Assembly (NCBI RefSeq): GCF_003428155.1
Contig: NZ_QLIR01000001.1
Span: forward strand, 1 to 32,000
Length of the DNA stretch: 32,000 nt
Direction of reading: 5' to 3'
From: Fastidiosibacter lacustris
GTDB taxonomy: Bacteria; Pseudomonadota; Gammaproteobacteria; Francisellales; Francisellaceae
Notes under the pieces: model-generated
What the model was told of the DNA's origin: nothing
Databases searched by the model: none
The model's input: the letters and a program-made list of their open reading frames with translations, nothing else
Part shown: positions 3,824 through 21,112 of the stretch, one piece after another
How positions within the stretch are numbered: the stretch's first letter is position 1
Layout: every line of letters begins with the position of its first letter
Made by a program: the position numbers and the translations under genes

Positions 3824-4291
3824 CTAATTTAGTCCTCTAAGGTACTCTAATACTTCCTCAACATGTCCTAGGACTGAAACCTTACGCCATTCTTTTATTA
3901 ATTTGACTTCGGGATTGATAATAAAAGTACTACGTTCAATGCCCATATATTTTTTGCCAAACATGCTTTTTTCTTTAAGCACCTCAAAGGCATTACATAA
4001 TATCATGTCTGTATCTGCTATTAATTCAAATGGCATATGATGCTTTGCCTTGAATTTTTCATGTGAGTTCAAAGTATCTTTTGAAACACCAAATATCACA
4101 GCATTGGCTTTAGCAAAATCTTCGCTGTGATTCTTAAATCCAACGCTTTCGATTGTGCAACCTGGGGTGCTGTCTTTAGGGTAAAAGTATAGTATGACAT
4201 ACTTGCCTTTGTAGTCATTTAACTTAAATGTTTTACCAGATGTTGTTGCTACTTGAGGTAACGTTACTTTATTGCCAACTTGAAAAGTCAT
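3824..4291 (-). CDS. bcp: thioredoxin-dependent peroxiredoxin Bcp
   Basis: A 155-aa ORF with the peroxidatic motif YFYPKDSTPGCT and an AhpC/TSA fold pattern. Confidence 0.85.
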   Translation of the reverse strand: MTFQVGNKVTLPQVATTSGKTFKLNDYKGKYVILYFYPKDSTPGCTIESVGFKNHSEDFAKANAVIFGVSKDTLNSHEKFKAKHHMPFELIADTDMILCNAFEVLKEKSMFGKKYMGIERSTFIINPEVKLIKEWRKVSVLGHVEEVLEYLRGLN

Positions 4292-4372
4292 TGTCTATAC
4301 TCCTTAACTTCGATTATTATATACTTCTTATTAAATATGCTTACTTTAACAAAACCTAATAAGAGATAAAGC

Positions 4373-4909
4373 ATGTCACAACAAAAAACCAATCACTTAA
4401 ATCCGATTAAATCAGCTAAAGAGAACCTTGTAATCGACAAAACCTTTGTTTTTTCAAACTTAGATACACTTCATGATTGCGTCATAAAGGGTGAATATAG
4501 CTTTCACTTTAGTGGCAACTTTAGCTGTCAGCATGAAAAAACGTTGTTAGATGGGAAAGTCACAGGTAACGTTGAGCTTATCTGTCAGCGCACACTTGAG
4601 CCATTTACCTTCAATATAGAAAGTGACATTAAACTTGGTTTTGTTACTGATGATCGCTTCTTTAAAAACTTTCCTGATGACTACGAACCCTATATCTATA
4701 AAGATAACCAAATTGATTTAACTCATCTGATCGAAGAGGAAGTTCTGTTGTGTATTCCAATGATTCCAAAAAAAGAACGAAATGATTGTCAAGTTGAACA
4801 AAATACGCCATACTGTGGCGTTCTTGAAACTGGTGATACTGAAAAGCAGGACAAACACAACCCGTTTGCTGCTTTAAAAGAGCTAAAGTTTAATAAAAAA
4901 TTAAAGTAG
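4373..4909 (+). CDS. yceD: YceD/DUF177 large-subunit ribosome-associated protein
   Basis: A 178-aa acidic ORF lies immediately upstream of rpmF. This is the conserved yceD-rpmF-plsX-fabH arrangement. Confidence 0.8.
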   Translation: MSQQKTNHLNPIKSAKENLVIDKTFVFSNLDTLHDCVIKGEYSFHFSGNFSCQHEKTLLDGKVTGNVELICQRTLEPFTFNIESDIKLGFVTDDRFFKNFPDDYEPYIYKDNQIDLTHLIEEEVLLCIPMIPKKERNDCQVEQNTPYCGVLETGDTEKQDKHNPFAALKELKFNKKLK

Positions 4910-7472: not shown

Positions 7473-7882
7473 GGGGGCGAATATGGCTTCGACGGGAATG
7501 TCAAGGTCTTACGGTGCATGCCGAGGGTGTATCTGCCTCGTAAAACACGTTATATCGTCAGAATAACTGGCAACAATAAAAAAGCTCGCGTTGTGGCTAA
7601 CGACAGCATTTTCGCTGTTCGTAAAGCTGCTTAATCTAGTTTAAAACCCTAGATACGCACGAACCGATAGTATTTGCTTGTGGATCTATCTTACGTTCGT
7701 TCATATTGACATAAGCTAGCTAAAGTGTCCGTCTGAACACTGATGTTAAATTCTAAGACTCGCTGGTTTCATACCCTGATTTATCGGGTAGACTCAAGTT
7801 AAACATAATAGATAAATCTAAGCATGTAGATCTGAAGATTGCGAGTTTACGGACGCGGGTTCAACTCCCGCCGCCTCCACCA
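7473..7882 (+). ncRNA. ssrA: tmRNA (SsrA), one-piece, 410 nt
   Basis: The 5' GGGGGCG (7473-7479) pairs with CGCCTCC (7872-7878), including the G3:U alanine identity pair, and is followed by ACCA (7879-7882). The T-arm is GGACGCGGGTTCAACTCCCGCC. The internal tag frame 7569-7634 encodes GNNKKARVVANDSIFAVRKAA plus a stop. Confidence 0.95.
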
Positions 7883-7892
7883 TTTTGAAAAA

Positions 7893-7943
7893 GAAAACCC
7901 GTCAATCCAGAGACATTCTCTGAGTAGGCGGGTTTTCTTTTTT
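7893..7943 (+). terminator. Rho-independent terminator of ssrA
   Basis: A 9-bp outer stem, GAAAACCCG (7893-7901) with CGGGTTTTC (7929-7937), encloses an inner CAGAGA-cat-TCTCTG hairpin. A T6 run follows at 7938-7943. Confidence 0.6.
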
Positions 7944-8270
7944 CCCTTGTTTCTAAATGGTTTGCGCCCGTTTCACATCTTTCCAAATCACCTCTCCGCA
8001 CCATCTATTCTCCCCATCTTCCAGCCTTTCTTTCTCTGTTTGACCACTGATTCTCTGTTTTCTTCGGACCAAGTCTGAAATACGTCACTTACAACGGTAG
8101 CATATACAATACCATCGATCTGTTTCGTTGCCTCGGACCAACTACTGCGCTAAGCCTCATAATTCGCCTTAATCGACTTTGCCATGCCCATACTTACGCA
8201 AAAAGAGTTGCCAGTGGTCAGTGGTTACGCCCGTGAGCATGCTTTTGCGGCCTTATCCGGACGAAAGCGT

Positions 8271-8299
8271 TTGACAATCGGCCCCTGCCTAAATATATT
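8271..8299 (+). promoter_or_regulatory. near-consensus sigma70 promoter upstream of the island operon
   Basis: TTGACA (8271-8276), a 17-nt spacer, then TATATT (8294-8299), about 95 nt upstream of the HTH gene start at 8394. Confidence 0.45.
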
Positions 8300-8393
8300 A
8301 AAGGGCATTTTAACTTGGGGAAGCTCCGCCCAGCATCCCCATTATCACCTCTGGCGTGGCAAGAAAACCAATCGCCCTTGAGGAGTCGGAGAT

Positions 8394-8609
8394 ATGACCG
8401 AGATAGAAGACCGCTGGTTATCAGTAGACGAGATAGGCAAGTACCTCGGTGTCAGCAGTGACACCGTTTACCGCTGGATCGACAAGCATGCGATGCCCGC
8501 CCATCGCATGGGTCGTCTTTGGAAGTTCAAAAAGGATCAGGTCGATGCCTGGGTCGAGGCTGGTGGCGCCAGTTCCACGCAAGACAAGTTGGAAGATAAA
8601 AACAATTAA
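8394..8609 (+). CDS. excisionase-family / MerR-superfamily helix-turn-helix DNA-binding protein
   Basis: The 71-aa ORF reads WLSVDEIGKYLGVSSDTVYRWIDKHAMPAHRMGRLWKFKKDQVDAW, the classic HTH_17/excisionase-type motif often found in front of hsdM. RBS: GGAGTCGGAG. Confidence 0.7.
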   Translation: MTEIEDRWLSVDEIGKYLGVSSDTVYRWIDKHAMPAHRMGRLWKFKKDQVDAWVEAGGASSTQDKLEDKNN

Positions 8610-8663
8610 CCAACCTGCCTGGGCCAAGCGTAGCACGGCAGGCAGGCTCGGTGAGGATTTATA

Positions 8664-10240
8664 ATGGCGAAGAAAGCGATTAATAACAAAAAACAAAAGA
8701 GCTTTGAGGAAACCCTTTGGGATTCCGCGAACAAGCTGCGCGGCAGTGTTGAACCTTCAGAATATAAGCATGTGGTGCTGAGTTTGATTTTTCTCAAGTT
8801 CGCATCGGATAAATTTGAAGAACGCATGCAGGAATTGATTGATGAAGGTCAAGGCGACTATGTGGGTATGGTGGAATTCTATACCATGAAAAACGTCTTC
8901 TATCTGCCGAAGAGACCCGCTGGAGCTTTATCAAGCAACACGCAAAACAAGATGATGTTGCCCTGAAAATTGATAGCGCCCTGTTCTCAATTGAGAAAGT
9001 TAACAAGTCCTTAAAAGGAGCATTACCAGATAACTATTTCTCTCGCCTAAATCTAGATGTTAGCAAACTGGCTGCTCTCATTGACACAATCAACAATATC
9101 AATACGCTTGCTGACAAGTCGCAGGATATTGTCGGACGGGTTTATGAGTATTTCCTGAGTAAATTTGCTCTCGCCGAAGGCAAAGGCAAGGGAGAGTTCT
9201 ATACCCCCAAAAGCATAGTAAATTTGATTGCAGAAATGATTGAGCCCTACAAAGGCAAGATTTATGACCCCTGCTGCGGTTCGGGCGGTATGTTCGTCCA
9301 GTCCATGAAATTTATAGAAAACCACCAAGGAAACAAAAAAGACATCTCCATTTACGGACAGGAATATACTGGAGCCACCTATAAGCTGGCCAAGATGAAT
9401 CTGGCTATCCGTGGCATTGCCGCCAACCTTGGTGAAGTTGCCGCAAGCACCTTTTCACGTGACCAGCACAAAGACTTAAAAGCTGATTACATCATGGCCA
9501 ATCCGCCGTTCAACCAGAAGGATTGGCGTGCATCCGATGAGCTGACCGATGATTCACGCTGGTCAGGCTATGACGTTCCGCCAACTAGCAACGCCAACTA
9601 CGGCTGGATTCTGCACATGGCGTCCAAGTTATCAGAAAACGGCGTGGCCGGATTCATTCTGGCAAACGGCGCTCTCTCCGGCGACAACACAGAGAAAGAA
9701 ATCCGCAAGAAGATGATTAAGAATCACCTTGTGGAAGCGGTGATCATCCTGCCACGAAACATGTTCTACACCACTGATATCAGTGTGACGCTCTGGATCT
9801 TGAACAAAAATAAAAAGACCAGAACTGTTGAGCATGGCGACATTTCCCGCCACTACCGCGACCGTGAAGATGAGATTTTGTTTATGGATCTGCGTGAGAT
9901 TGGCGAGCCGTTTGAAAAGAAATTTATACAGTTTTCAGATGAGCATATACAGAAAATTTCCAGCACCTATCACACATGGCAGCAAACTCTCGCTGAGACG
10001 GAATACAAAAATATTCCTGAATACTGCTATTCAGCGAGTCTCGATGAGATCAGAACCAAGGACTATTCCCTCGTGCCAAGTAAATATATCGAGTTTGTAA
10101 ATCGGGACGAGAATATCGATTTCGATGAAAAAATGGCTGGCCTGCAGACGGAATTTACAGATTTATTGAAAGCAGAAGAAGCGTCAAAAAATGAACTGCT
10201 GAATGTATTCAGGGAGCTGGGATATGAGATCAAGCTATAA
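8664..10240 (+). pseudogene. hsdM: Type I R-M methyltransferase subunit HsdM, interrupted by a 1-nt frameshift near 8910
   Basis: The N-terminal part has the HsdM_N signature (LWDSANKLRGSVEPSEYKHVVLSLIFLKF). After FYLP the homology continues in the -1 frame: ETRWSFIKQH...GRVYEYFLSKFALAEGKGKGEFYTPKSIV. Motif I is DPCCGSGGMF and motif IV is NPPF. There are no stops in the second frame between 8912 and 10240. Confidence 0.85.
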
Positions 10241-11327
10241 AAGAATGGGTGACTACATTCGCAAAGTAGACAACCGAAACAAAGATGTTCTCGTTACCGA
10301 TCCTGTTTTTGAGATAGTCGATCACAATAAGGTACATCCCGAATATTTAATGATGTGGATGCGAAGGAGTGAGTTTGACCGATATGTGTTTTTTCGGTGT
10401 GACAGTGCCATTCGAGGAGGCTTCGGCTGGGAAGAACTATGTGATGTTGCACTCCCCGTGCCGACCATCGAAAAACAGCGGGAGATTGTGCGGGAGTACT
10501 ACACCATTGTTGACCGGATTAAGTTAAACGAACAACTCAACCAGAAGCTGGAAGAAACGGCACAGGCTATCTACAAGCAGTGGTTCGTCGATTTTGAATT
10601 TCCCATGTCTAAAGAGCATGCCGCCAAAATCGGCAAGCCGGAACTGGAAGGCAAACCCTACAAATCCAGCGGCGGCAAAATGGTTTGGAATGATGAATTG
10701 GATCAGGAGATTCCGGAGGGGTGGGAAAATGGAACAGTTGAATCATTTTCTGAATTAATCGACGGTGATAGGGGGAAAAGCTACCCCAGTCAGGGTGATT
10801 TTTTTGAAGAAGGACACTGTCTGTTTCTAAATACTGGCAATGTTACAAAAAGTGGGTTTGATTTTTCTTCTACTAGTTTCATAACTGCAGAGAAGAATAA
10901 TGCCCTAAGAAAAGGAAAGCTAAAGCGATATGACTCAGTTCTCACAACGTGTGGAACAGTTGGCAACTGTGCCTACTTCAGCGATGAAGTTGAGTATGAT
11001 CATTTAAGAATCAATTCAGGAATGATTATTATTCGTTCTCTTGATGTGGCTAAATATAAAGTATTCAACTATCAGCTACTAAAGAGCCCAATGATGAAAA
11101 ATGCGATATCCAGCTTTCTGTCGGGTTCGGCACAGCCACAACTCCCCATCAAAGACATTAGAAGAATCAACATTTTGAAGCCTGTGGATGCTTATATTGA
11201 AAAATCAATGGAGTTGATTGAGCCTCTTCAGAAAAATATTGATGGCAACAATAAGAATATTAGAAAATCAAAAGAGTTGTTATCGCTTCTTCTTTCCAAA
11301 ATGACAAAAGCGGAGGCAATTGCATGA
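10224..11327 (+). CDS. hsdS: Type I R-M specificity subunit HsdS (first TRD apparently shortened)
   Basis: The central conserved helix is LPVPTIEKQREIVREYYTIVDRIKLNEQLNQKLEETAQAIYKQWFVDFEFP, followed by a full-size second TRD and a C-terminal conserved helix. I chose the start at 10224 (RBS GGGAG 7 nt upstream), which overlaps the hsdM 3' end. Starts at 10203 and 10245 are also possible. Confidence 0.75.
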   Translation: MRSSYKRMGDYIRKVDNRNKDVLVTDPVFEIVDHNKVHPEYLMMWMRRSEFDRYVFFRCDSAIRGGFGWEELCDVALPVPTIEKQREIVREYYTIVDRIKLNEQLNQKLEETAQAIYKQWFVDFEFPMSKEHAAKIGKPELEGKPYKSSGGKMVWNDELDQEIPEGWENGTVESFSELIDGDRGKSYPSQGDFFEEGHCLFLNTGNVTKSGFDFSSTSFITAEKNNALRKGKLKRYDSVLTTCGTVGNCAYFSDEVEYDHLRINSGMIIIRSLDVAKYKVFNYQLLKSPMMKNAISSFLSGSAQPQLPIKDIRRINILKPVDAYIEKSMELIEPLQKNIDGNNKNIRKSKELLSLLLSKMTKAEAIA

Positions 11328-11464
11328 CGATTGCCGCCGGAACCATCAATTACCAATTAGGGACCGCACCGGTCACCGGATGCGGCTTCTCTTATTCTGC
11401 CGATGAGTTTGATACTGCATTGTCAGGTTCTGTCGCAGATTATGGATGGGAGGTTGGATTATGA
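11324..11464 (+). CDS. 46-codon ORF bridging hsdS and the RloC-like gene (hypothetical)
   Basis: The ORF encodes MTIAAGTINYQLGTAPVTGCGFSYSADEFDTALSGSVADYGWEVGL. Its ATG overlaps the hsdS stop (ATGA, 11324-11327) and its TGA overlaps the next gene's ATG (ATGA, 11461-11464). It is below the ORF-track size cut-off, and I recognise no homology. Confidence 0.35.
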   Translation: MTIAAGTINYQLGTAPVTGCGFSYSADEFDTALSGSVADYGWEVGL

Positions 11465-14016
11465 GCCAGCAATCGAAAACACACGCGAAAGATTACTTGG
11501 TTGATTTTTCACAAGATCAGTGTGACTGGTTAAAGTTGCTTATTTTCGAAGCAGTAAACACCAATGGTAAAATATCTGACGGAAAATTGGACGAGATTTA
11601 TTCCAACCTTAAAAGCGGGACAGCAGTTCAACAGCCGAGCCTCAACACACGTTCTGCATCGAACACTCAGATCATTTCAATAAAGAAGTTGGAACACATT
11701 AGTGGCGTTAATGCGCTGGCAGCCAACCAAACCATAAAATTCAGTGAACATGTAACCGTTCTTTACGGGCTAAATGGTGCAGGAAAAAGTAGCTATTTCA
11801 AGGTACTTAATGAGATTGTTGGAGGGAATGAACAAAAGGAGCTTCTGTCTAATATCCACGCAGATCAAAATCAATCAATTCAAGTAAAGCTGACCTACAA
11901 TAATGGCAGTAGCAAGGACTTGAATTTTGATAACACCCAAAGAGGTTTTGATGATCTGTTAAGGTGCAAGGTCTTTGATTCTTCTTATCTGGCGGGTCTG
12001 CTTTCGCAGCGCACTCAAGACGAAACTGTTTTAGAACCGTTGGGATTACATATTTTTAAATACATTGCTGACAAAATTGATGCGTTTAAGCTTCGGTTGA
12101 GAAACGATGCCGACCGATTAAAAGGAAGTAAACCATCAATCTCTCTTGAAAATGTCTCTGATCAATTAAAGGGTGAATTTGAGGCACATAATCTGTCAGA
12201 AGCATCAATTTCCTCAATGCGCAAGAAGTTTGTATTCACGGAGGAACAAGAAAAACAGCTTAAAGAAAAAACAAGCGAACGAACAACTCTGAGGCAAACC
12301 AATTATGCAGACCGCATTACTCTCTTGGAAATAGAGAATAAGGAAGTTAGACAGATTTATAATTGCCTGAAAAAGAAAAAACAGCTGGAGACGAAAGCTT
12401 TATATCTTCACGAATTACTGAAAAATAAAAGGGATAAGGAAAGTGCTAATAAGCAGGCATTGGAGAAGATCGCTATCCTCAAAGAGCTCCCTTTCTCGGG
12501 ATCTGCGGAGTGGAAAGGTTTTATTTCAGCCGGAGCGAAGCTAAAACAAAAGAGCAACACGGGCGGAGCAAACTGCATTTACTGCAATCAGCCATTACAA
12601 GATGATGCGCTCAGATTAGTTCAGGCATATTCGGAATATTTAGGAGATAAAACCGAGAGCGAATTAAAAAAAGCAACGGATGACTTAACCAAAGCCAAGG
12701 GGGAGGTTAATGCCATAGCGGTTTCGCTAAATGTTTCTGATAATTTCAGCCAGAAATACAAAGAGGCTCTTCTTGAGAACACCGGAACTTCGTTGACCAT
12801 CGCACTAGATGAAGCTCAAAGATCTCTTGAAGGCTTAAAATCTCATTTAATTGATTTGATTGATGGACAGATGCAAGAGCAACCCCGTGTTGAGGTAGCT
12901 CCCCAACTCTGTCTTTGGCTTGTTAGTAAGTATAAAGAAAATGCTCGAACTATTAGAACACTCAAGGCGGATGACACTCAAAAGAACGAAAAGATTAAAA
13001 CCTTGGAGAATGAGCTCAAAGTTCTCATGGAAAACGAATCCGTCTCTACGCAACAAGCAGAAATTGAGAGTTGGCTGAAGATCGATAAGGAAGAGAAGCT
13101 TCTAAGGGAAAAAGAATCCGAGATAAACACCAATTCCGTTACTCGCCTTTCAAATACAGCACATGACGAGCTATTAACCTCTGAATTGAACAAAGCCTTC
13201 AAAAATGAGCTTGATCAGCTCGGTTATAAAAACCTAGAAGTGAATTTAGTCAAAGCCGAAGGGGGCAAGGGCTCCAGTTCGACCAAGCTGATTCTTGAAA
13301 ACAGCGATTCCATTCATAGCATCCTGAGTGAAGGAGAACAAAAGGCAGTTGGCTTGGCTCTATTTATTGCAGAAGCAGTTGTTCAAAAATCGAAAGCACC
13401 GATAATTTTGGATGATCCGGTAAACAGTCTGGATCATAAGATTGCCGCCAATTTCGCAAACAGACTTCTTGCGCTAGATAATCAGCTCATAATCTTCAAT
13501 CACAATAGATTGTTTCAGGATGCCTTTGAAACTGCTAAGGCTGGGCATATATGCAAAACTGTCGACTCCGCCTGCAATAAACAGGGCAAGCATATTCTGG
13601 TTTACACTGTAAGCTCTGAGGGAAAGTCACGAAAAGGGGTTCTAAGCTTCTATCGTACCAACACCTTCAACGATCACATTGGTGAAGCAAAGCAAGAGCT
13701 ACAAAAATCACCCTTTACAGAGCATTCAAAAGTATCCGCCATACTGCGAAAAGCTGTGGAGTGTCTGGTTGATGAAACCGTTTTAAACGGTGTTACGCCA
13801 ACAAAGTATAGTAACAAGAATAGCAGGATTCCTTGGGATAAACTCACAGGCTTGAATTGTTCTTCTGAAAATATTGAGAAGATGAGAAAAGTCCACGATC
13901 GTGTTTCTGGAGGCGATCTACACAACGGCACAGAGTCGGAAAACAATCCTATTGATGTTGAGGAGTTTAACCGATTGGTCTCTGATTTGGAAAACGTCAC
14001 AGGAGGTGACTCATGA
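11461..14016 (+). CDS. AAA_13-type (PrrC/RloC-like) ABC/SMC-fold ATPase with coiled-coil CxxC hook; putative anticodon nuclease
   Basis: - Walker A GLNGAGKSS (11767-11793).
- A long charged, coiled-coil-like insert containing CIYC (12574-12585).
- Signature LSEGEQ (13324-13341) and Walker B IILDDP (13402-13419).
- C-terminal LRKAVE (R 13747, E 13759) followed by His residues at 13894 and 13921, as in the PrrC/RloC R-x3-E...H triad.
- Start placed at 11461 behind RBS GGAGG. Confidence 0.7.
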   Translation: MSQQSKTHAKDYLVDFSQDQCDWLKLLIFEAVNTNGKISDGKLDEIYSNLKSGTAVQQPSLNTRSASNTQIISIKKLEHISGVNALAANQTIKFSEHVTVLYGLNGAGKSSYFKVLNEIVGGNEQKELLSNIHADQNQSIQVKLTYNNGSSKDLNFDNTQRGFDDLLRCKVFDSSYLAGLLSQRTQDETVLEPLGLHIFKYIADKIDAFKLRLRNDADRLKGSKPSISLENVSDQLKGEFEAHNLSEASISSMRKKFVFTEEQEKQLKEKTSERTTLRQTNYADRITLLEIENKEVRQIYNCLKKKKQLETKALYLHELLKNKRDKESANKQALEKIAILKELPFSGSAEWKGFISAGAKLKQKSNTGGANCIYCNQPLQDDALRLVQAYSEYLGDKTESELKKATDDLTKAKGEVNAIAVSLNVSDNFSQKYKEALLENTGTSLTIALDEAQRSLEGLKSHLIDLIDGQMQEQPRVEVAPQLCLWLVSKYKENARTIRTLKADDTQKNEKIKTLENELKVLMENESVSTQQAEIESWLKIDKEEKLLREKESEINTNSVTRLSNTAHDELLTSELNKAFKNELDQLGYKNLEVNLVKAEGGKGSSSTKLILENSDSIHSILSEGEQKAVGLALFIAEAVVQKSKAPIILDDPVNSLDHKIAANFANRLLALDNQLIIFNHNRLFQDAFETAKAGHICKTVDSACNKQGKHILVYTVSSEGKSRKGVLSFYRTNTFNDHIGEAKQELQKSPFTEHSKVSAILRKAVECLVDETVLNGVTPTKYSNKNSRIPWDKLTGLNCSSENIEKMRKVHDRVSGGDLHNGTESENNPIDVEEFNRLVSDLENVTGGDS

Positions 14017-15440
14017 TCCCCTTCCACCCCTACGAAGACGAATGCACTGAATTCAAGCGGGAACTCACCGATACGCTGGAAAAGGAAGTCGTGGCATTTC
14101 TCAATTCCGCCAAGGGCGGGGACATCTATATCGGGGTGGAGGACGATGGCACGGTGGTTGGCGTTGACAATCCGGACAAGTTGCAATTGGCGATTATTGA
14201 TCGGATCAAAAACAATATTTTGCCGACGACCCTTGGCTTTTTTGATGTGGTTACACAGGAGATTGACGGCAAGCCGGTCATTAAGGTGATTGTTACCCGT
14301 GGACTCGAAAAACCGTATTACCTGAAAAAATACGGTATGTCTCCCGCCGGGGCGCACATTCGGGTGGGCACGGGAACGCAGCCGCTGACCACCGAGATGA
14401 TCGACCGCTTATATGCCACCCGCACGCGGGATTCGTTGCGCAATATCCCCTCGCCGCGAAAGAACCTGAGTTTTCATCAGTTCAAAATCTATTACGATGA
14501 GAAGGGTTTTACGGTAAACGATTCATTCCTTGAAAACCTCGACCTCTATGCCCCAAACGGCGAGCTGAATTATGTGGCATACCTTTTGGCGGATCAAAAC
14601 AGCGTCTCCATTAAAGTCGCCAAGTTTGCGGGACCAGACAAACTTGATTTGATTGAAAACGAGGAATATGGCTATTGTTCGCTCATCAAGGCGACTGAGC
14701 GGGTTCTGGATAAGCTGGAAATTGAAAACAGGACTTTTGCCAAAGTAACGGGCGCCGCCAGAAGGCTAGAGAAAAATATGATTGATAAAGCGGCACTGCG
14801 TGAAGCATTTATCAATGCCATCGTTCATAACGACTATACGCGGGAAATGACTCCGGTGGTGGAGATTTACTCAGACCGTCTTGCGATTGTTTCTTATGGT
14901 GGATTGGTGCAGGGATTATCCCAGGAAGACTTTTTTGCCGGGCGATCCATGATACGCAATCGTGAGTTGATGCGGGTTTATCGGGATCTGGATCTGGTGG
15001 AGCAATTAGGTTCGGGCATGGGTAAAATCCTTCGTGCTTACTCAAAGGATGTTTTTCGTCTCAGTGAGAATTTCGTAGAGCTTTGTTTCGAGTACGAAGA
15101 GGGATATCTGGAATCTCTAAAGGATGGAGAAAAGAGGGGTGAAAAAACGCGGGTCGAAACGCGGGTGAAAACGTCGGAAAAGAGTTCGGAAAACGCCGAT
15201 GTTTTTCGGAATGATTTCGGAATTATTTCGGAAAGAGTTCGGAAGGAGCTCGGAAGCAACGTAGCGAAGACCTTTGAGATGATCTATCAACACCCTGACC
15301 ATAGCGCTGAGGAGATTGCGGCGGAACTTGGTAAAACAGCTCGGACGATTGAAAACCACATAGCCAAACTCAAAGAAGATGGCGTGATTGTTAGGAAAGG
15401 TCCCAAATTAGGCGGCCACTGGGAGGTTGTAGATGAGTAA
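14013..15440 (+). CDS. AlbA_2 (Schlafen-like) / HATPase_c_4 / C-terminal winged-HTH protein (annotated in databases as putative DNA-binding or RecG-like ATP-binding protein)
   Basis: The N-terminus is AlbA_2-like ([40 protein letters not shown]). The middle is HATPase_c_4-like ([13 protein letters not shown]...[17 protein letters not shown]...[26 protein letters not shown]). The C-terminus is a wHTH ([41 protein letters not shown]). There are ATGA overlaps with both neighbours. Confidence 0.75.
15147..15259 (+). repeat. degenerate tandem-repeat tract: four 12-nt units followed by five 11-nt units with a TTCGGAA core
   Basis: The 12-nt units are ACGCGGGTCGAA, ACGCGGGTGAAA, ACGTCGGAAAAG and AGTTCGGAAAAC (15147-15194). 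TCGGAA cores then start at 15206, 15217, 15228, 15239 and 15250, exactly 11 nt apart. The tract lies inside the AlbA_2 gene linker. Confidence 0.8.
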
Positions 15441-17061
15441 GTTCACCGAAGCCAAACTGGAAGCAGCCATTATCGAGCTCTTACAGCTTGAAGGCTATGA
15501 ATATGTAAGCGGGGAAACCATAACTCGCCCTGAAAATGAAGTCTTACTCAAAGACGATCTGCGCAGCTATCTTTCAAGGCGTTATGCAACAGACCAGATA
15601 ACCATCGGTGAAATTGACTCGATCGTTCGCAAGCTGGAGGTCTTTTCCGCATCTGATCTTTATGAAAGTAACAAAGCCATCATGAAGATGGTCTCTGATG
15701 GCTTTTTGTTGAAGCGTGAAGACCGCAGCAAAAAAGATCTGTATATCCAGTTGCTGGATTATCGGGATCTTCCCGAACTGCGTGAGCCGAAGCCGACGGA
15801 GGTCGAAACCGTCGTTGCCGAGGAAGTTGCCCCTTATAACGCCACCCAAAACATCTATAAGGTGGTGAATCAGTTTGAAATCCTTGGATACGAAAAACGG
15901 ATACCTGACGGCATTATATACATCAACGGTTTGCCCTTGGTGGTTTTTGAATTCAAAAGCGCCATTCGTGAAGAAGCAACCATCCACGATGCCTATGTTC
16001 AGCTGACAACCCGGTACCGCCGGGATATTCCAGAGCTGTTTAAATACAACGCGATTTGTGTGATTAGCAACGGTGTCAATAATAAGGCCGGTTCTTTCTT
16101 TGCCCCGTATGAGTTTTTCTACGCGTGGCGTAAAACCGATGGCGCAGACCTTGTTGAGAAAGATGGCATTGATTCCCTCTACACCATGGTTAAAGGGATG
16201 TTCAACCTGCATCGGATCAGGGACATTATCCGAAACAGCATCCTGGCTCTGGACAAAGAACTGCAGGTGACCCCACTGCAGTACACCATCCAAAGTGGCC
16301 TCCAGAACGATCAGATCACCGATGGTCAACTCAGAAGCGGTGACGGATTCACGCTGACCAACACATCAGTCGAAACCCACAATGCCTTAATCCATTCCAT
16401 GGTCACCTATGATCTGCTTGGGAAAATTGCCGAAAACACTCAACTGACAAGAAAGACCGTAGCCGAGATATTGCGCGGCGTTCAGACGGCGGTTTTCAAG
16501 CAATTCAAACAGAACCCGGAGCATTTCATCGCCGAAGGCTCACGGCTTATCAATGAGCAGAAGGCCACGATCATCATCAAGCGGCTGAGCTACGACAACA
16601 TTGCCGAGACCCACGATATCGATATTTTCACCGCAGGCCAAAGCAAGCAGGACTTCACCAAGGCGAGCGAGAAGCTGAAGAACCACATCTATGACTACGT
16701 GATTACCGACTCCAAGGTTGAGCGGGAGTTTGTGAAAGAGCTGGATACCAGCACCGAGGTGGTCGTCTATGCAAAGCTCCCCAGAGGCTTCCTGATTCCA
16801 ACTCCCGTCGGCGACTACAACCCGGACTGGGCCATTTCCTTCAAAGAAGGTTCGGTCAAGCACATCTATTTCGTCGCCGAGACCAAGGGCTCCATGTCCA
16901 GCATGGAGCTTCGGGCAATCGAACAAACCAAAATCGAATGCGCCCGCAAGTTCTTCGCGGAGGTCAACCGCAAGATTGATCCCGAACACGTGAAATACGA
17001 CGTGGTAACTAGCTACGGGAAACTGATGGAGATTGTCGGCATGGGAGGGGCAAAAGCATGA
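15433..17061 (+). CDS. in-frame fusion: HsdR N-terminal PD-(D/E)xK nuclease domain + Type III Res-like C-terminal nuclease domain; helicase motor absent
   Basis: Residues 1 to about 270 are HsdR_N-like: [14 protein letters not shown], a D...EFK motif (D 15907, E-F-K 15949-15957), then [10 protein letters not shown]...FFYAWRK. From about 16245 the sequence matches Type III Res C-termini as I recall them: [74 protein letters not shown]. No Walker A, DEAH or helicase motifs are present. Confidence 0.7.
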
Positions 17062-19635
17062 ATGAGTTTTCGGCATCACTGACCAAATGGTTTTCAGAGC
17101 GCCCCCAGTGGCTCCAGATCGCGGCTACTCGGCTACTCCAGCAGTCTGAGCTTACCGACAAAGATGTCTCTGAGCTCGCAACCCTATGCCAGCAGGAAGC
17201 CGAAGGTAAGCTGCCCAAAACGACCTGTTCCTTTCCTGCTACCGCGTTCTCCCCGGGCGCAGCAGGCTCCCTGCGTTTGTGTTCAATCAGTGATGTCGAA
17301 GGAGTAAACGCCCTTGCTCCGAAAAAGCCACTTGAGTTTGGCAAGGGCAATATCACGATTGTTTATGGCAACAACGGGTCAGGCAAATCCGGTTACGTCA
17401 GACTCCTCAAACATGTATGCGGAGCCCGCGAGACGGGTACCCTCCACCGCAATGTCTATAAGCCCGGCGCTGCCGCACAGAAAGCCTGCATTTCGTTTGA
17501 GCAGGACGGCGTACCGAAGACTCATACCTGGTCTGGGCAAGGTATCTGCGATGACCTCAACAGCGTTGATATTTTCGACACCTCGTTTGGCAAGGTGTTT
17601 GTCAGCAGCGAAGACGAGGTGAGCTACGAGCCGCCGGTATTATCCTTTTTCAGCTTGCTCATCCTCGCATGCGAAAAGGTCGCATCGGCCTTGGACACCG
17701 AGGCCAACCGGCACCAGTCAAAAAAACCGAATATCCCGGCTGACAAGAAGGTAACTCCTGAAGGCATCTGGTACGAAGCCATCAGCGCCAAGACCAGCAC
17801 CCAGGACATCGACAAGTATTGCGCATTTGGCAGTGCTGACGAAACCGAGATGCAAACGCTGCAGCAGCGCCTTGCCGAACAGGCACCGGCAGAAAAAGCG
17901 AAGCAGCTGAGAAAGCAGAAGCAGCATATCGACACTCTGATCCAGGATGCCCAAAAGTATCTGCAGCAATTATCGGACGAGAATTACCGGCGGATCATTG
18001 CTGCTAAGAAGAAGTCGATTCTCAAAAAGGCAGCGGCAGATACGGCGGCGGAAAAGGTGTTCTCCGGCAGCGAGCTGGAAGGAATCGGCTCTGATGTCTG
18101 GAAAGAACTTTGGGAAGCGGCCCGGAACTACTCCGTCTCGGCTGTCTACAAAGAAACCGAGTACCCGAATGTTTCTGATGGTTCCCGTTGTGTCCTGTGT
18201 CACCAGCCCTTGACCCAGGAGGCCAAGGAGCGGTTGATCTCCTTCGAAAACTTCGTGAAGGGCGAAATGCAGAAAGCCGCAACGGATGCGGCCAAGGAAT
18301 ACGAGACCGCCAATCAAACTATCGAGGCGCTACCGACATCGGAGACGCTGAAGGCACGTATCGATGCGGCTGGTATTCCACAGGATGAAGTCGCCAGCCA
18401 GGTGACGGATTTCTTTGCCCAATTGCAGGCCAGAAAAGACCTGCTCCCTGGGATCGATTCCGAAGAAGCCATTCCCGACCCTCTGCTCTCACCGAAATGG
18501 ATCGAAGAAGCCAACGCCCAGTCGAAGAGCCTCGGTGAACTCGCGGCAAAATATGACGAAGACGCCAAAAGCGATAATCTTGAGGAGATCAAGAAGAAGC
18601 TAAACAGCCTGCAGACCAGAAAGTGGTTGTCTGAACGCCGCGCCGCCATTGATGAAGAAGTCACCCGATTGAAGCTGCTGAATCAGATTCAGGAAGCCAA
18701 GAAGTCGACCAACACCAAAGCCCTATCCCAGAAGAAAGGGGAGCTGGCAGAAGCCTTGATCACGGATGCGTTCGTGCAAAGGTTCAATGCAGAGCTCAAG
18801 GCCCTGGGCGCGTCTCGGGTGAAAGTCGAGCTCGTGAAGTCAAAAGTCTCGAAAGGCCGCGTCCTTCATAAGCTCCAGCTTCGAGGGGCTTCTCAGAATG
18901 GGCTCGCCGATGTGCTGAGCGAGGGAGAAAATCGGATCGTTTCCATTGCGGCTTTCTTAGCCGACGTCACCGGCAAGAGCAACCAGGCTCCGTTTATCTT
19001 TGACGATCCAATATCCTCGTTGGACCAAAGCTATGAGGAGGCCGTGGTTCAAAGACTGATCGAGTTGTCTCAGGAAAAACAGGTCATAGTCTTTACTCAC
19101 CGCCTGTCCTTGCTGGGAACGGTCCGGCATTTTGCCGAGAAAAAGACCATCAAGCCCGATGTGGTGAGCATTCGCTCTGCGGACTGGGGGGACCGGAGAG
19201 CCCGCGCCCATTCCACTTTCACAGAGCGACATCAAATCCGCCCTGAACACACTCATGAATCAGCGGTATCAGGATGCAAAGAAGGCGAGTGAAAACGGCG
19301 AGTTTGAACATGCCGAAATCTTGCTGAAGTCGATATGTAGCGACTTCAGGACATTGGTGGAGCGCTCTATTGAAAATGATCTGCTGTGCGGAGTGGTTCA
19401 AAGATTCCAACGACCGGTCCATACGTTGAAGCTCAAGGATCTGGCCAAATTGAAGGACGCGGATTGCAATCTCCTTGATTCGCTCATGACCAAATACTCC
19501 GGGTTCGAACACTCACAGCCAGCAGAATCACCAGTGGAGCTGCCGAAGCCAGACGAGCTTCTGGGCGACATGACTTCGCTAAAAAACTGGCGTGAAGAAT
19601 ACGCGAAGCGCCCCGCCTCTGCGGTGGCCGGGTAA
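17058..19635 (+). pseudogene. second AAA_13-type (RloC-like) ATPase, split by a +1 frameshift in a G6 run (19186-19191)
   Basis: - Walker A GNNGSGKSG (17367-17393) and CVLC hook (18189-18200).
- Signature LSEGEN (18915-18932) and Walker B FIFDDP (18993-19010).
- After ADWG the homology continues in the +1 frame: TGEPAPIPLSQSDIKSALNTLMNQRY...FRTLVE (R 19348, E 19360)...YSGFEH (H 19510).
- Removing one G gives a single ORF of about 858 aa. Confidence 0.7.
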
Positions 19636-19639
19636 CAGT

Positions 19640-19957
19640 ATGAAAGTTCTTCATACATCCGACTGGCATATCGGCCGCACCCTTTACGGCAGAAAACGCT
19701 ACGAGGAATTCTCTGCGTTTCTGGATTGGCTGACCCAGACCATTGAAGATGAAACCGCGTGGTTGACCCAGGCACACATGGCAGAACTATTTCAGGTGAA
19801 ACCGCAAAATATTACCATGCACCTGAAAAACATCTATGCTGAGGGGGAATTGGCGGAAGAGTCAACTTGTAAGGAGTTCTTACAAGTTCAACAAGAGGGT
19901 GCAAGACAGGTTGAAAGAAAACGGAAATTTTACACTCTGGATGCCATTATAAAGTAA
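19640..19957 (+). pseudogene. chimeric remnant: SbcD N-terminus (about 35 aa) fused to an internal RhuM-family fragment (about 70 aa)
   Basis: MKVLHTSDWHIGRTLYGRKRYEEFSAFLDWL is the metallophosphoesterase motif-I start of SbcD. TAWLTQAHMAELFQVKPQNITMHLKNIYAEGELAEESTCKEFLQVQQEGARQVERKRKFYTLDAII matches the N-terminal region of RhuM-family proteins. The ORF ends exactly where host-type AT-rich DNA resumes. Confidence 0.65.
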
Positions 19958-20066
19958 AGCGCTGCTGAGTAATTTAAATGGTTAACACTAGGTTCTGTGA
20001 AGTTGAGTTGGCTCAAACGAGCGAGCATCTAGATTAGAAGTCCATTTCATCGAGGCACGTATCTTT

Positions 20067-20984
20067 TTATTGTAATTTCAAATTACTGGCTTTAGCAGCT
20101 TGATACATAACTCCAGTGCCCAGTTTTTGACTTAATTGATCAAATAGATTTAACGGTTGAGTAAAATTAATGACTTTCATATTATTGAATTTATCACGTT
20201 GTAAACTGTCAACAGATGCAAAGTCATCAATTAAACCATATTCTTTCGCTTGAATGCCAGAAAATGGCATGCCAGAAAAAATCTTATCTTCGGCTTTAAG
20301 GTTAAGTCTGTCACCTCGAACTGCCTTCACAGCATTGATAAAGACTTGATGTGTTTGGGTAAGCATTGCTTCCATTTCTTTTACTTGTGCTGCACTTTGC
20401 GGTTCAAAAGGATCCAAAAACCCCTTATCTTTACCGGATGTATAGAGTCTACGTTCTACACCAATTTTCTTTAACAACTCGACAAAACCAAATCCATCAG
20501 CACGCACACCGATTGATCCTGTGATAGTCATTTTATTGGTATAGATATCTTTAGCGGCTGAGGCAATATAGTAACCCCCAGATGCACATACATCAAGGCA
20601 TACGGCATAAAGTGGAATTTTTGAATATTTGTTTTGGAGATAGCGCATATGTTCATAAATATTATCGGATTGAACAGGTGAGCCGCCGGGGCTATTGATT
20701 TCAATAATTACAGCTTTGGTGTTTTTATCTTCAAAAGCCGCATCTAGGCTGTTATTAATACGTGTGGCATTAGCATTGCTATCATCAGCAATAACACCAT
20801 CAACTTTTACCAAGGCGATGTGATCTTCTGTTTTAATGGGAGGGGTGCTAAAAGTTTTAAATAATAGACCGATGATTAAAAGAGCAACAACAAGCCAGCA
20901 GAGTCTAAAGAATATCCGCCAGCGTCGTGTGCGCCTTTGTTCAAGTATATAGGCATTAGCAATTCGTTCTAAATGTTCTGACAT
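20067..20984 (-). CDS. sppA: signal peptide peptidase SppA (36K type)
   Basis: It has an N-terminal TM segment and ClpP/crotonase-like motifs (EINSPGGSPV, CASGGYYIA, GSIGV). I chose the start at 20984 (MSEHLER) behind RBS AAGGAA rather than the ORF-track start at 21029. Confidence 0.85.
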   Translation of the reverse strand: MSEHLERIANAYILEQRRTRRWRIFFRLCWLVVALLIIGLLFKTFSTPPIKTEDHIALVKVDGVIADDSNANATRINNSLDAAFEDKNTKAVIIEINSPGGSPVQSDNIYEHMRYLQNKYSKIPLYAVCLDVCASGGYYIASAAKDIYTNKMTITGSIGVRADGFGFVELLKKIGVERRLYTSGKDKGFLDPFEPQSAAQVKEMEAMLTQTHQVFINAVKAVRGDRLNLKAEDKIFSGMPFSGIQAKEYGLIDDFASVDSLQRDKFNNMKVINFTQPLNLFDQLSQKLGTGVMYQAAKASNLKLQ

Positions 20985-21112
20985 GATGGTTCCTTTTTTA
21001 TAAGTGTAAAACGAAAAATGAACAGTCAAATGGTAGAGGAAATTAAGAAAAAAATCAGCAGGATTTATGGTTAAAAGAGAAAGATAGATGGTTTTAAGCT
21101 TAACCTACTTGT

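Follow-up and report, generated by a model that had tools for sequence, protein, structure and literature searches.

What does a run of overlapping genes, each of a kind met in bacterial defence, tell us about whether their products act together? The question is raised by a gene string in Fastidiosibacter lacustris, which we analysed within a stretch of 32,000 nucleotides (nt) of contig NZ_QLIR01000001.1, referred to as the window in the following; labels such as L169 or L130 denote comparison loci. A preliminary description of positions 11324-19635 had proposed that a small open reading frame (ORF), two large RloC-like ATPases, a Schlafen-like protein and a motor-less double nuclease constitute a composite defence system, and had considered, as an alternative, debris from two fused loci. 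We regard it as likely that the string is what remains of a defence island beside the transfer-messenger RNA (tmRNA) gene, decayed and scarred by recombination, and not one composite system. For this window, the value of the analysis is mainly corrective, as the apparent five-gene system would come down to a recombination scar and pseudogenes.

All genes of the string lie on the plus strand: hsdS (10203-11327), the small ORF (11324-11464), the first ATPase gene, ATPase1 (11461-14016), the Schlafen gene, ORF3 (14013-15440), the nuclease gene, ORF4 (15433-17061), and the second ATPase gene, ATPase2, in two frames (17058-19292 and 19255-19635). The stop-start overlaps that had suggested a single unit are present, with ATGA at 11324, 11461, 14013 and 17058 and ATGAGTAA at 15433, and a GGAGG-like motif stands 5' of four of the five overlapping starts, the exception being 11324. 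This translational coupling is not special to the window, because the parental-type operons L006, L169 and L011 are packed alike, their corresponding boundaries being overlapped or 1-3 nt apart. Since promoter and terminator scans gave no excess over shuffled expectation, the operon structure is read from gene packing alone. Likewise, the domains ascribed to ORF3, ORF4 and both large ATPases are borne out by Pfam and PADLOC profile searches, and parts of the gene order recur elsewhere (L169/L170, L006, L130), as modular slots of a defence island rather than as one machine. The notion of a composite system itself finds no support, given that no listed match of ORF4 spans both of its halves, ATPase2 is frameshifted, the Schlafen slot is variable and the coupling is inherited.

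ORF4 encodes 542 amino acids (aa). By blastn, codons 1 to ~268 of hsdR, from a type I restriction-modification (R-M) system, continue in it without a shift of frame into the 3'-terminal ~275 codons of a type III res gene. Its description as a motor-less double nuclease is right as far as the domains go: Pfam places PF04313 (HSDR_N) on aa 4-225 (E 3.8e-34) and PF19778 (RE_endonuc) on aa 417-526 (E 1.2e-34), and PADLOC aligns positions 4-251 of 1029 of REase_I and positions 721-985 of 989 of REase_III. Both PD-(D/E)xK motifs are intact, and a motor and a methylase partner are lacking. At the nucleotide level, 15430-16242 matches hsdR (blastn; 83% to L005, 87% to L169) and 16228-17052 matches the 3' end of the type III res genes of L001-L004 at 91%. 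These two alignments overlap by 15 nt at 16228-16242, where a three-way alignment of the window with L005 hsdR and L001 res locates the left joint, hsdR|res (plus strand), at a microhomology of ~9 nt, ATT(C/A)(T/C)CGAAAC. A type III Res combines a superfamily 2 (SF2) helicase motor with a C-terminal endonuclease and works with a mod partner; the window holds no mod gene, and the res remnant should not amount to such an enzyme.

Protein searches point the same way. A word-indexed search was run over 5.8 billion proteins, and just one of its best 120 of 3,454 matches covers more than ~55% of ORF4, and this one is a type III Res fragment with 59% identity and 67% coverage; among these best 120, the N-terminal half of ORF4 is up to 90% identical to HsdR, and Res proteins of 874-919 aa match the C-terminal half with up to 96% identity. 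An exhaustive HMMER search covered 1.84 billion representatives; each top stretch of its best 150 of 5,235 matches falls within query residues 1-279 or 239-538, the N-terminal half aligning to the N-terminus of the match and the C-terminal half to its C-terminus. The fused HsdR-N::Res-C architecture occurs in none of these best 120 of 3,454 and best 150 of 5,235 matches. We read the 'double nuclease' as the in-frame scar of an hsdR|res join, which is not to be counted as a new protein family.

Beyond this joint, the right part of the locus (16228 to ~19705) has the appearance of one colinear donor block, consisting of the 3' end of res, ATPase2 and the 5' end of sbcD. Positions 17045-19744 are 95% identical to L011/L012, where genes for SbcD (409 aa) and SbcC (1091 aa) come next after the ATPase2 homologue. 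L130 is colinear with window positions 16393-19052, over the res/ATPase2 boundary, and again in sbcD, which shows the order res-ATPase2-sbcD to be native to a donor locus. An origin of res and ATPase2 as two separate foreign pieces was considered and dropped, as L130 presents them as one colinear block. The marked difference in composition that had been noted for the two ATPases is real, with a guanine-cytosine (GC) content of ~0.39-0.42 across ATPase1 versus 0.54 across ATPase2.

The block ends within a 5' fragment of sbcD (19640-19750, plus strand; NCBIfam sbcd, E 7.4e-12), which contains the right crossover at ~19700-19712: positions 19640-19707 share 94-96% identity with the L011/L130 type and 79% with L169, and positions 19708-19754 are 91% identical to L169 and 60% to L011/L130. 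SbcCD consists of a full SbcD phosphoesterase and an SbcC ATPase, and the 36 sbcD codons left here would not provide it. In frame with codon 36 follows a truncated internal fragment of rhuM (PDC-S05; codons ~45-109; 19748-19957, plus strand), which was found by blastp to aa 45-109 of the L006 RhuM protein and by the PADLOC PDC-S05 model (E 7e-30).

The left part (8394-16235), in turn, is recognisable as a type I R-M operon such as stands intact in L169/L170 and L006. In L169/L170, the closest intact relatives of the left half, the order is HTH_17, hsdM, hsdS, a 46-aa ORF, an ATPase1-type gene (69% identical to ATPase1), a YhcG nuclease gene, hsdR, RloC and sbcD; the hsdR gene is intact, its N-terminal 267 aa being 92% identical to the window, and the RloC before sbcD is a canonical one (PF13166, 823 aa). 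L006 has the order hsdS-ATPase-Schlafen-hsdR, with hsdR-ygjP and then rhuM. The R-M host of the string had been called dead, and its genes agree with this. The hsdM pseudogene (8664-10240, plus strand) carries a 1-nt deletion at ~8908; PF12161 is found at 8664-8966 and PF02384 at 9224-10240, the segment missing between these domains continues in another frame, and in our reconstruction CCGAAGAG is present where the downstream HsdM frame needs CCGGAAGAG. The hsdS gene, whose 5' end overlaps the end of hsdM by 38 nt, has one recognisable target-recognition domain (PF01420 on aa 171-344 only), and the PADLOC Specificity_I model aligns only from its position 88 on. Lastly, hsdR ends at ~aa 268, with no ResIII or helicase matches in Pfam or PADLOC. 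As a functional type I system takes an intact hsdM, a two-domain hsdS and an hsdR with an SF2 motor, this operon would no longer restrict or modify DNA.

Taken together, these comparisons suggest the following history. The backbone would have been a type I R-M operon of the L169/L170 and L006 build, in the order AlpA-like regulator, hsdM, hsdS, RloC-like passenger, second slot (here Schlafen), hsdR, further RloC-like gene, sbcD-sbcC and rhuM. Foreign DNA with the end of res, ATPase2 and the start of sbcD may then have replaced the resident segment of an L169-like locus. At one end, it would have entered by a homologous crossover inside sbcD, and at the other by an illegitimate join at the ~9-nt res/hsdR microhomology, which would have destroyed hsdR and made ORF4. 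Later lesions would include the 1-nt deletion in hsdM, the loss of an hsdS recognition domain and the additional G in ATPase2, and a later deletion may have fused sbcD codon 36 to the rhuM fragment, leaving rhuM truncated. The idea of debris from two fused loci is thus supported by mapped joints at 16228-16242 and ~19700-19712. This pattern is known from naturally transformable bacteria as homology-facilitated illegitimate recombination, in which one homologous anchor is combined with one microhomology joint. The likeness lies in the sbcD 5' anchor, the hsdR|res microhomology and the replacement of resident DNA, while the event in the window differs in that it is deduced solely by comparison with relatives and not with the true donor or ancestor. 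As such, the locus may serve as a base-resolved example of defence-island remodelling, with a cassette replaced via one homologous and one microhomology joint.

Which genes, then, have come through this history? ATPase1 (851 aa) has full length and all motifs, and is apparently intact. It agrees in full (100% identity) with a Fastidiosibacter lacustris protein that NCBI lists as 'AAA family ATPase', and matches the PADLOC PDC-S06 model PDLC04892 over positions 2-839 of 843 (E 3e-284). ATPase2 (17058-19635, plus strand) is a pseudogene with a +1 G frameshift and matches the PDC-S06 model PDLC04893 with its main ORF (E 2.8e-271) and its C-terminal ORF (E 1.2e-50). The motifs previously reported for the two proteins are all at their places. 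For ATPase1, these are GLNGAGKS at residue 103, LSEGEQ at 622 and IILDDPVNSLD at 648, and for ATPase2 GNNGSGKS at 104, LSEGEN at 620 and FIFDDPISSLD at 646; CxxC motifs (CIYC at 372 and CVLC at 378, respectively) lie halfway from the Walker A to the signature motif, and the C-terminal motif reads LRKAVE at 762 in ATPase1 and FRTLVE at 763 in ATPase2. The latter belongs to a triad, R763-E767-x53-H821 in ATPase1 and R764-E768-x49-H818 in ATPase2, for which the spacing in the canonical L169 RloC is x39. In both ATPase families, the R, the E and the His of the triad do not vary, nor does a Ser, and Pfam gives AAA_23/SMC_N matches.

In the AlphaFold2 model of ATPase1 (mean predicted local distance difference test, pLDDT, 79), long helices at 197-364 and 381-586 stand on either side of the CxxC motif, and the best PDB structure matches (Foldseek) are SMC, Rad50 and LmuB, with E 2e-8 to 4e-7. 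The top structural matches of the C-terminal domain, modelled separately (pLDDT 67), are HEPN proteins, weak ones with E >= 0.15, and this domain is predicted to be HEPN-like. A sequence search of the PDB yielded generic SMC/Rad50/ABC heads only and no solved PrrC or RloC relative.

Davidov & Kaufmann (2008, PMC2610378) define RloC, a wobble-nucleotide-excising anticodon nuclease, by its ABC motifs, a Rad50-like insert with coiled coil and CxxC, the triad Arg-x3-Glu-x36-52-His and a length of 658-897 aa; its mechanism has also been described (PMC2610378, PMC3458546). The window ATPases resemble RloC of Geobacillus kaustophilus in the ABC motifs, the Rad50-like insert with a central CxxC, the Arg-x3-Glu-x(n)-His triad, the length within 658-897 aa and the occasional embedding of their kind in type I and type III R-M loci. 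The proposal that both are RloC-like is accordingly right, in that each combines a Rad50-like ABC head, a CxxC coiled coil and a C-terminal Arg-x3-Glu...His triad. PF13166 (AAA_13), by which this proposal was to be checked, is matched by ATPase2 (E 8e-18; 64.9 bits, above the gathering cut-off of 36), and ATPase1 gives no match at E<=0.01; many of the 40-58% identical homologues of ATPase1 have precomputed PF13166 matches. The Glu-His spacing of 53 in ATPase1 is one residue past the published range of 36-52, into which the 49 of ATPase2 fits. Further differences from RloC are that the window proteins form a separate sequence cluster, PDC-S06, and that their His stands in RVSGGxxH or TKYSGFEH in place of ...SH. 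In hhalign, the alignment to a canonical RloC runs from the CxxC motif (paired with CAFC) through the D-loop with a probability of 96.9% and stops before the C-terminal domain. Because the profile alignment leaves this domain out, we use the label 'RloC-like' only, and membership in the RloC family proper is shown just in part.

PrrC, the anticodon nuclease that accompanies the EcoprrI type Ic R-M system, is likewise an ABC-ATPase with a C-terminal RNase, encoded between hsdS and hsdR as a backup of the R-M system. It has ~400 aa and neither coiled coil nor zinc hook, whereas the window proteins have 851 and 858 aa (the latter after repair of the frame) and a coiled coil. Furthermore, PrrC is silenced by its R-M partner, whereas in the window the R-M system is dead and the gene persists, which makes RloC-like self-regulation the better fit. 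The PADLOC PrrC model matches only 43 residues of the ATPase2 core (E 0.0033) and ATPase1 not at all; by these features, neither protein would be a PrrC. PDC-S06, in contrast, matches both ATPases over their full length, and a type I R-M-embedded context is typical of it; it is defined as a single-gene candidate, whereas in the window one copy lies beside a Schlafen gene and the other comes from an sbcD-sbcC cassette. Embedded PADLOC PDC genes of this sort are experimentally untested candidates (Payne et al. 2024 preprint, 'guilt by embedding', 10.1101/2024.01.29.577857), and Anantharaman et al. (PMC3710099) had noted before that R-M operons can contain PrrC/RloC-type ABC-HEPN genes in the company of RhuM- and Fic-like ones.

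The second gene that appears intact is the Schlafen gene (14013-15440; 475 aa), which encodes a Slfn nuclease, a HATPase_c_4 region and a winged helix-turn-helix (wHTH). It had rightly been called Schlafen-like: Pfam finds PF04326 (E 1.3e-19), PF13749 (E 9.1e-14) and HTH_11 (E 1.2e-6), and the catalytic motif is intact besides, EDECTEFK at residue 8, i.e. E8-x4-E13-x-K15, in agreement with the Ex4(E/D)xK of PMC13056530. In its Slfn/AlbA_2 domain with this motif, its HATPase_c_4 region, its wHTH and its place in a defence island, the protein resembles the Slfn-HisKinase-HTH class (PMC13056530, PMC12839542). Perez Taboada et al. (PMC13056530) assign 19.2% of prokaryotic Schlafens to this class, and a survey of bacteriophage exclusion (BREX) loci (PMC12839542) reports it as a widespread backup effector beside BREX and related loci; it is not among the protective architectures in the published test panel.

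Only ATPase1 and the Schlafen gene thus seem to survive apparently intact, and each probably works by itself as sensor and effector in one. In ATPase1, the Rad50-like head, the coiled coil and the putative zinc hook would gate the HEPN-like RNase at the C-terminus, in the manner demonstrated by experiment for RloC; in the Schlafen protein, the Ex4ExK site would cut transfer RNA (tRNA) under the control of its ATPase-like and wHTH regions. Either survivor could shut off translation in an infected cell. We infer this mode of action from experiments on other RloC and Schlafen proteins. Both survivors belong to known classes of R-M-embedded, predicted tRNA-targeting abortive-infection effectors, and embedded genes of this type would have remained here after the surrounding restriction system died.

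Several points weigh against the history proposed here or against parts of it. The joints are seen in one assembly only, and the sbcD crossover rests on just 115 nt. Both fusion joints (hsdR|res at 16228-16242 and sbcD|rhuM at 19748-19757) are in frame, which is expected by chance in one of nine cases, and may reflect selection to keep downstream translation coupled, or for function. An RNase activity of ATPase1 is called into question by the missed PF13166, the x53 spacing, the profile alignment that ends short of the C-terminal domain and the HEPN matches at E >= 0.15 with a model of pLDDT 67. Finally, an ATPase1-type gene and a Schlafen gene are adjacent, with a stop/start overlap, in four of six close contexts. 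In view of this recurrence, the RloC-like and Schlafen genes may be functionally coupled to some extent.

A stronger form of this coupling would be that ATPase1 and the Schlafen gene make up an obligate two-gene system, either a double tRNase or a sensor with its effector, in a dead R-M operon whose other genes are debris. The overlap of 4-8 nt is found in the window, L006/L007, L008 and L009/L016, the pair persists without R-M genes in L008, which keeps 36 nt of hsdR, and in L009, where it adjoins an integrase gene, and in L111 a Schlafen gene follows an ATPase2-type gene, too. The content of the slot argues otherwise. In the close subclade of ATPase1 (>=53% identity), the slot after the ATPase holds a Schlafen of type A in the window and L008 (66% identical to each other) and one of type B in L006/L007 and L009/L016, whereas it holds a YhcG nuclease in L169-L171 and is empty in L167/L168; types A and B share only 24% identity, and the pattern in which they occur does not agree with the ATPase tree. 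In the wider ATPase1 family, at <=47% identity, the gene is mostly solitary or the sole hsdS-hsdR passenger (80 genome loci), and Schlafen-HisKinase-HTH genes are linked to BREX and related loci independently (PMC12839542). The parts therefore look like modular slots with independent passengers, and we hold an obligate pair to be rather unlikely.

Two of these comparison loci call for a closer description. In L111, the hsdM and Schlafen (type B) genes are 92-93% identical to those of L006, and an ATPase2-type gene replaces the ATPase1-type gene, which shows cassette swapping within one slot. In L008, a metagenome locus, the ATPase1-type and Schlafen pair lies amid housekeeping genes, and the 36 nt 3' of the Schlafen stop are 89% identical to the start of hsdR (L008 13951-14016). 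We had considered L008 as an R-M-free pair and dropped this view, as these 36 nt still match the hsdR 5' end; the pair in L008, too, must derive from an R-M locus, and L008 reads as another instance, besides the window, in which the pair has outlasted its R-M operon.

The frameshift of ATPase2 raises the alternative that the gene is a functional one, switched ON and OFF by phase variation of its G run. The frameshift, reported before, is real: it lies in a homopolymeric tract, G6, at 19186-19191 (plus strand), where the closest relative, L011, has G5, and the deletion of one G restores an 858-aa ATPase2 that aligns end-to-end with homologues of 853-858 aa from many phyla (85-95% identity). The rest of the gene is 92-96% identical to intact homologues. 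The tract is, however, only six G long, relatives have G5, or G6 in frame, with no tract expansion seen, and the usual sbcD-sbcC neighbours are deleted. A switch of this kind is very unlikely, and the additional G is better seen as one of the lesions of a decaying island.

There is also the proposal of all five genes as one composite system directed at tRNA and DNA. What speaks for it is the unbroken coupling at all boundaries, the intact PD-(D/E)xK motifs of the chimera, the two in-frame joints and the presence in L169, likewise, of two RloC-like genes flanking hsdR. Yet the overlaps are inherited from parental operons, the chimeric architecture is not found elsewhere among the listed best matches, the parts come from at least two loci of differing GC content, and ATPase2 is frameshifted and stripped of the sbcD-sbcC genes of its relatives. 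Since the locus is a mosaic, this proposal is already largely refuted and appears most improbable. An assembly or sequencing artefact, for which one might cite that the locus is known from one assembly and that single-base errors in G runs are common in sequencing, is scarcely credible either, as the joints lie at microhomologies of 9-15 nt, well below assembler k-mer length, three separate joints each keep ORFs, and the flanks are colinear housekeeping genes.

Apart from its own history, the window leads to a recurrent association of RloC-like genes with sbcD-sbcC. In metagenome loci, sbcD lies 8-24 nt downstream of ATPase2 relatives in 37 of 53 evaluable cases, mostly at 8 nt, and is followed by sbcC. 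The gene upstream varies: it is BrxL in 29 of 57 loci, and otherwise a UvrD/PD-(D/E)xK gene, a type III res or hsdS. The Escherichia coli relative of ATPase2 is a lone hsdS-hsdR passenger, and the window ATPase2 has neither its usual sbcD-sbcC neighbours nor an intact frame. A limited literature check found no paper tying RloC-type genes to an sbcDC operon. It is tempting, if tentative, to propose that RloC-like ATPases of the anticodon-nuclease type work together with an SbcD-SbcC pair of their own, which resembles Mre11-Rad50, and that the three genes travel as a defence cassette that inserts behind BREX loci and behind R-M loci of type I or type III. The window would have a broken copy of this cassette, and ATPase1 and Schlafen would in addition be a coupled double tRNase that has outlived its R-M host; on balance, we doubt this combined view. 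If true, the link of RloC-like genes with sbcD-sbcC would join DNA-end processing to a tRNA-cutting effector. This link and the RloC-like/Schlafen adjacency, repeated yet not obligatory, are testable leads.

With regard to individual loci, an RloC-like gene stands directly 5' of sbcD(-sbcC) in the window (17058-19750), L011, L096-L161, L015, L103, L130 and L169/L170. In L169, it is a different, canonical RloC, and the sbcD that it precedes is 89% identical over its first 36 aa. The SbcD of these cassettes has no PADLOC v2 model. Tails 3' of sbcC are common to only part of the loci; in L153, which has the order BREX-ATPase2-sbcDC, a gene 2 nt past sbcC (14100-15260, 386 aa) has a predicted pPIWI-associating nuclease domain (PF18165, E 7e-20).

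Of the smaller features of the island, the 46-aa ORF between hsdS and ATPase1 (plus strand) matches positions 1-39 of 265 of the PADLOC model PDC-M23A (E 9e-5) and probably represents what is left of the start of a PDC-M23A-type gene. We dropped the idea that it is debris unique to the window, because it is conserved in L169/L170, and take it as a remnant or micro-ORF common to these loci: it agrees in 37 of 46 residues with the L169 counterpart (L169 3178-3318), which has the same place and the same ATGA overlaps on both sides, and L170 has it, too. It is not present in L006 or L167. The ORF could be the stump of a gene that was retained, or else a small ORF that serves in coupling. The cassette begins with an AlpA-like HTH_17 gene (8394-8609, plus strand; PF12728, E 6.5e-16), which is 83% identical to the first gene of L169 at the aa level and 89% to L001 881-1050 at the nt level.

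Searches for wider relatives of the right part added little. With 15400-19960 against complete E. coli genomes, megablast gave no match and blastn only type III res matches of ~73%, and a search of a plasmid collection returned a single irrelevant match of 292 nt.

The left boundary of the island, and likely its integration site, is the tmRNA gene ssrA (7473-7882, plus strand), found by ARAGORN and by Rfam RF00023 with 176 bits. The 3' side of the tmRNA gene is a classic site of island integration, and the GC content climbs from ~0.39 to 0.46 immediately past ssrA. No integrase ORF was found in the island, and a search for att-like direct repeats flanking it gave short repeats at chance level only. 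The right end precedes sppA (20067-21029, minus strand). The island is flanked by yceD, plsX and fabH to its left and by sppA, aspS, pta and ackA to its right. Between ssrA and the HTH_17 gene, a gap of ~500 nt (7883-8393) has just short ORFs without assignment. Further to the left, the cumulative GC skew has a minimum at ~4000-4500, where gene orientation flips (bcp on the minus strand; yceD, plsX and fabH on the plus strand); it probably marks merely a divergent gene pair.

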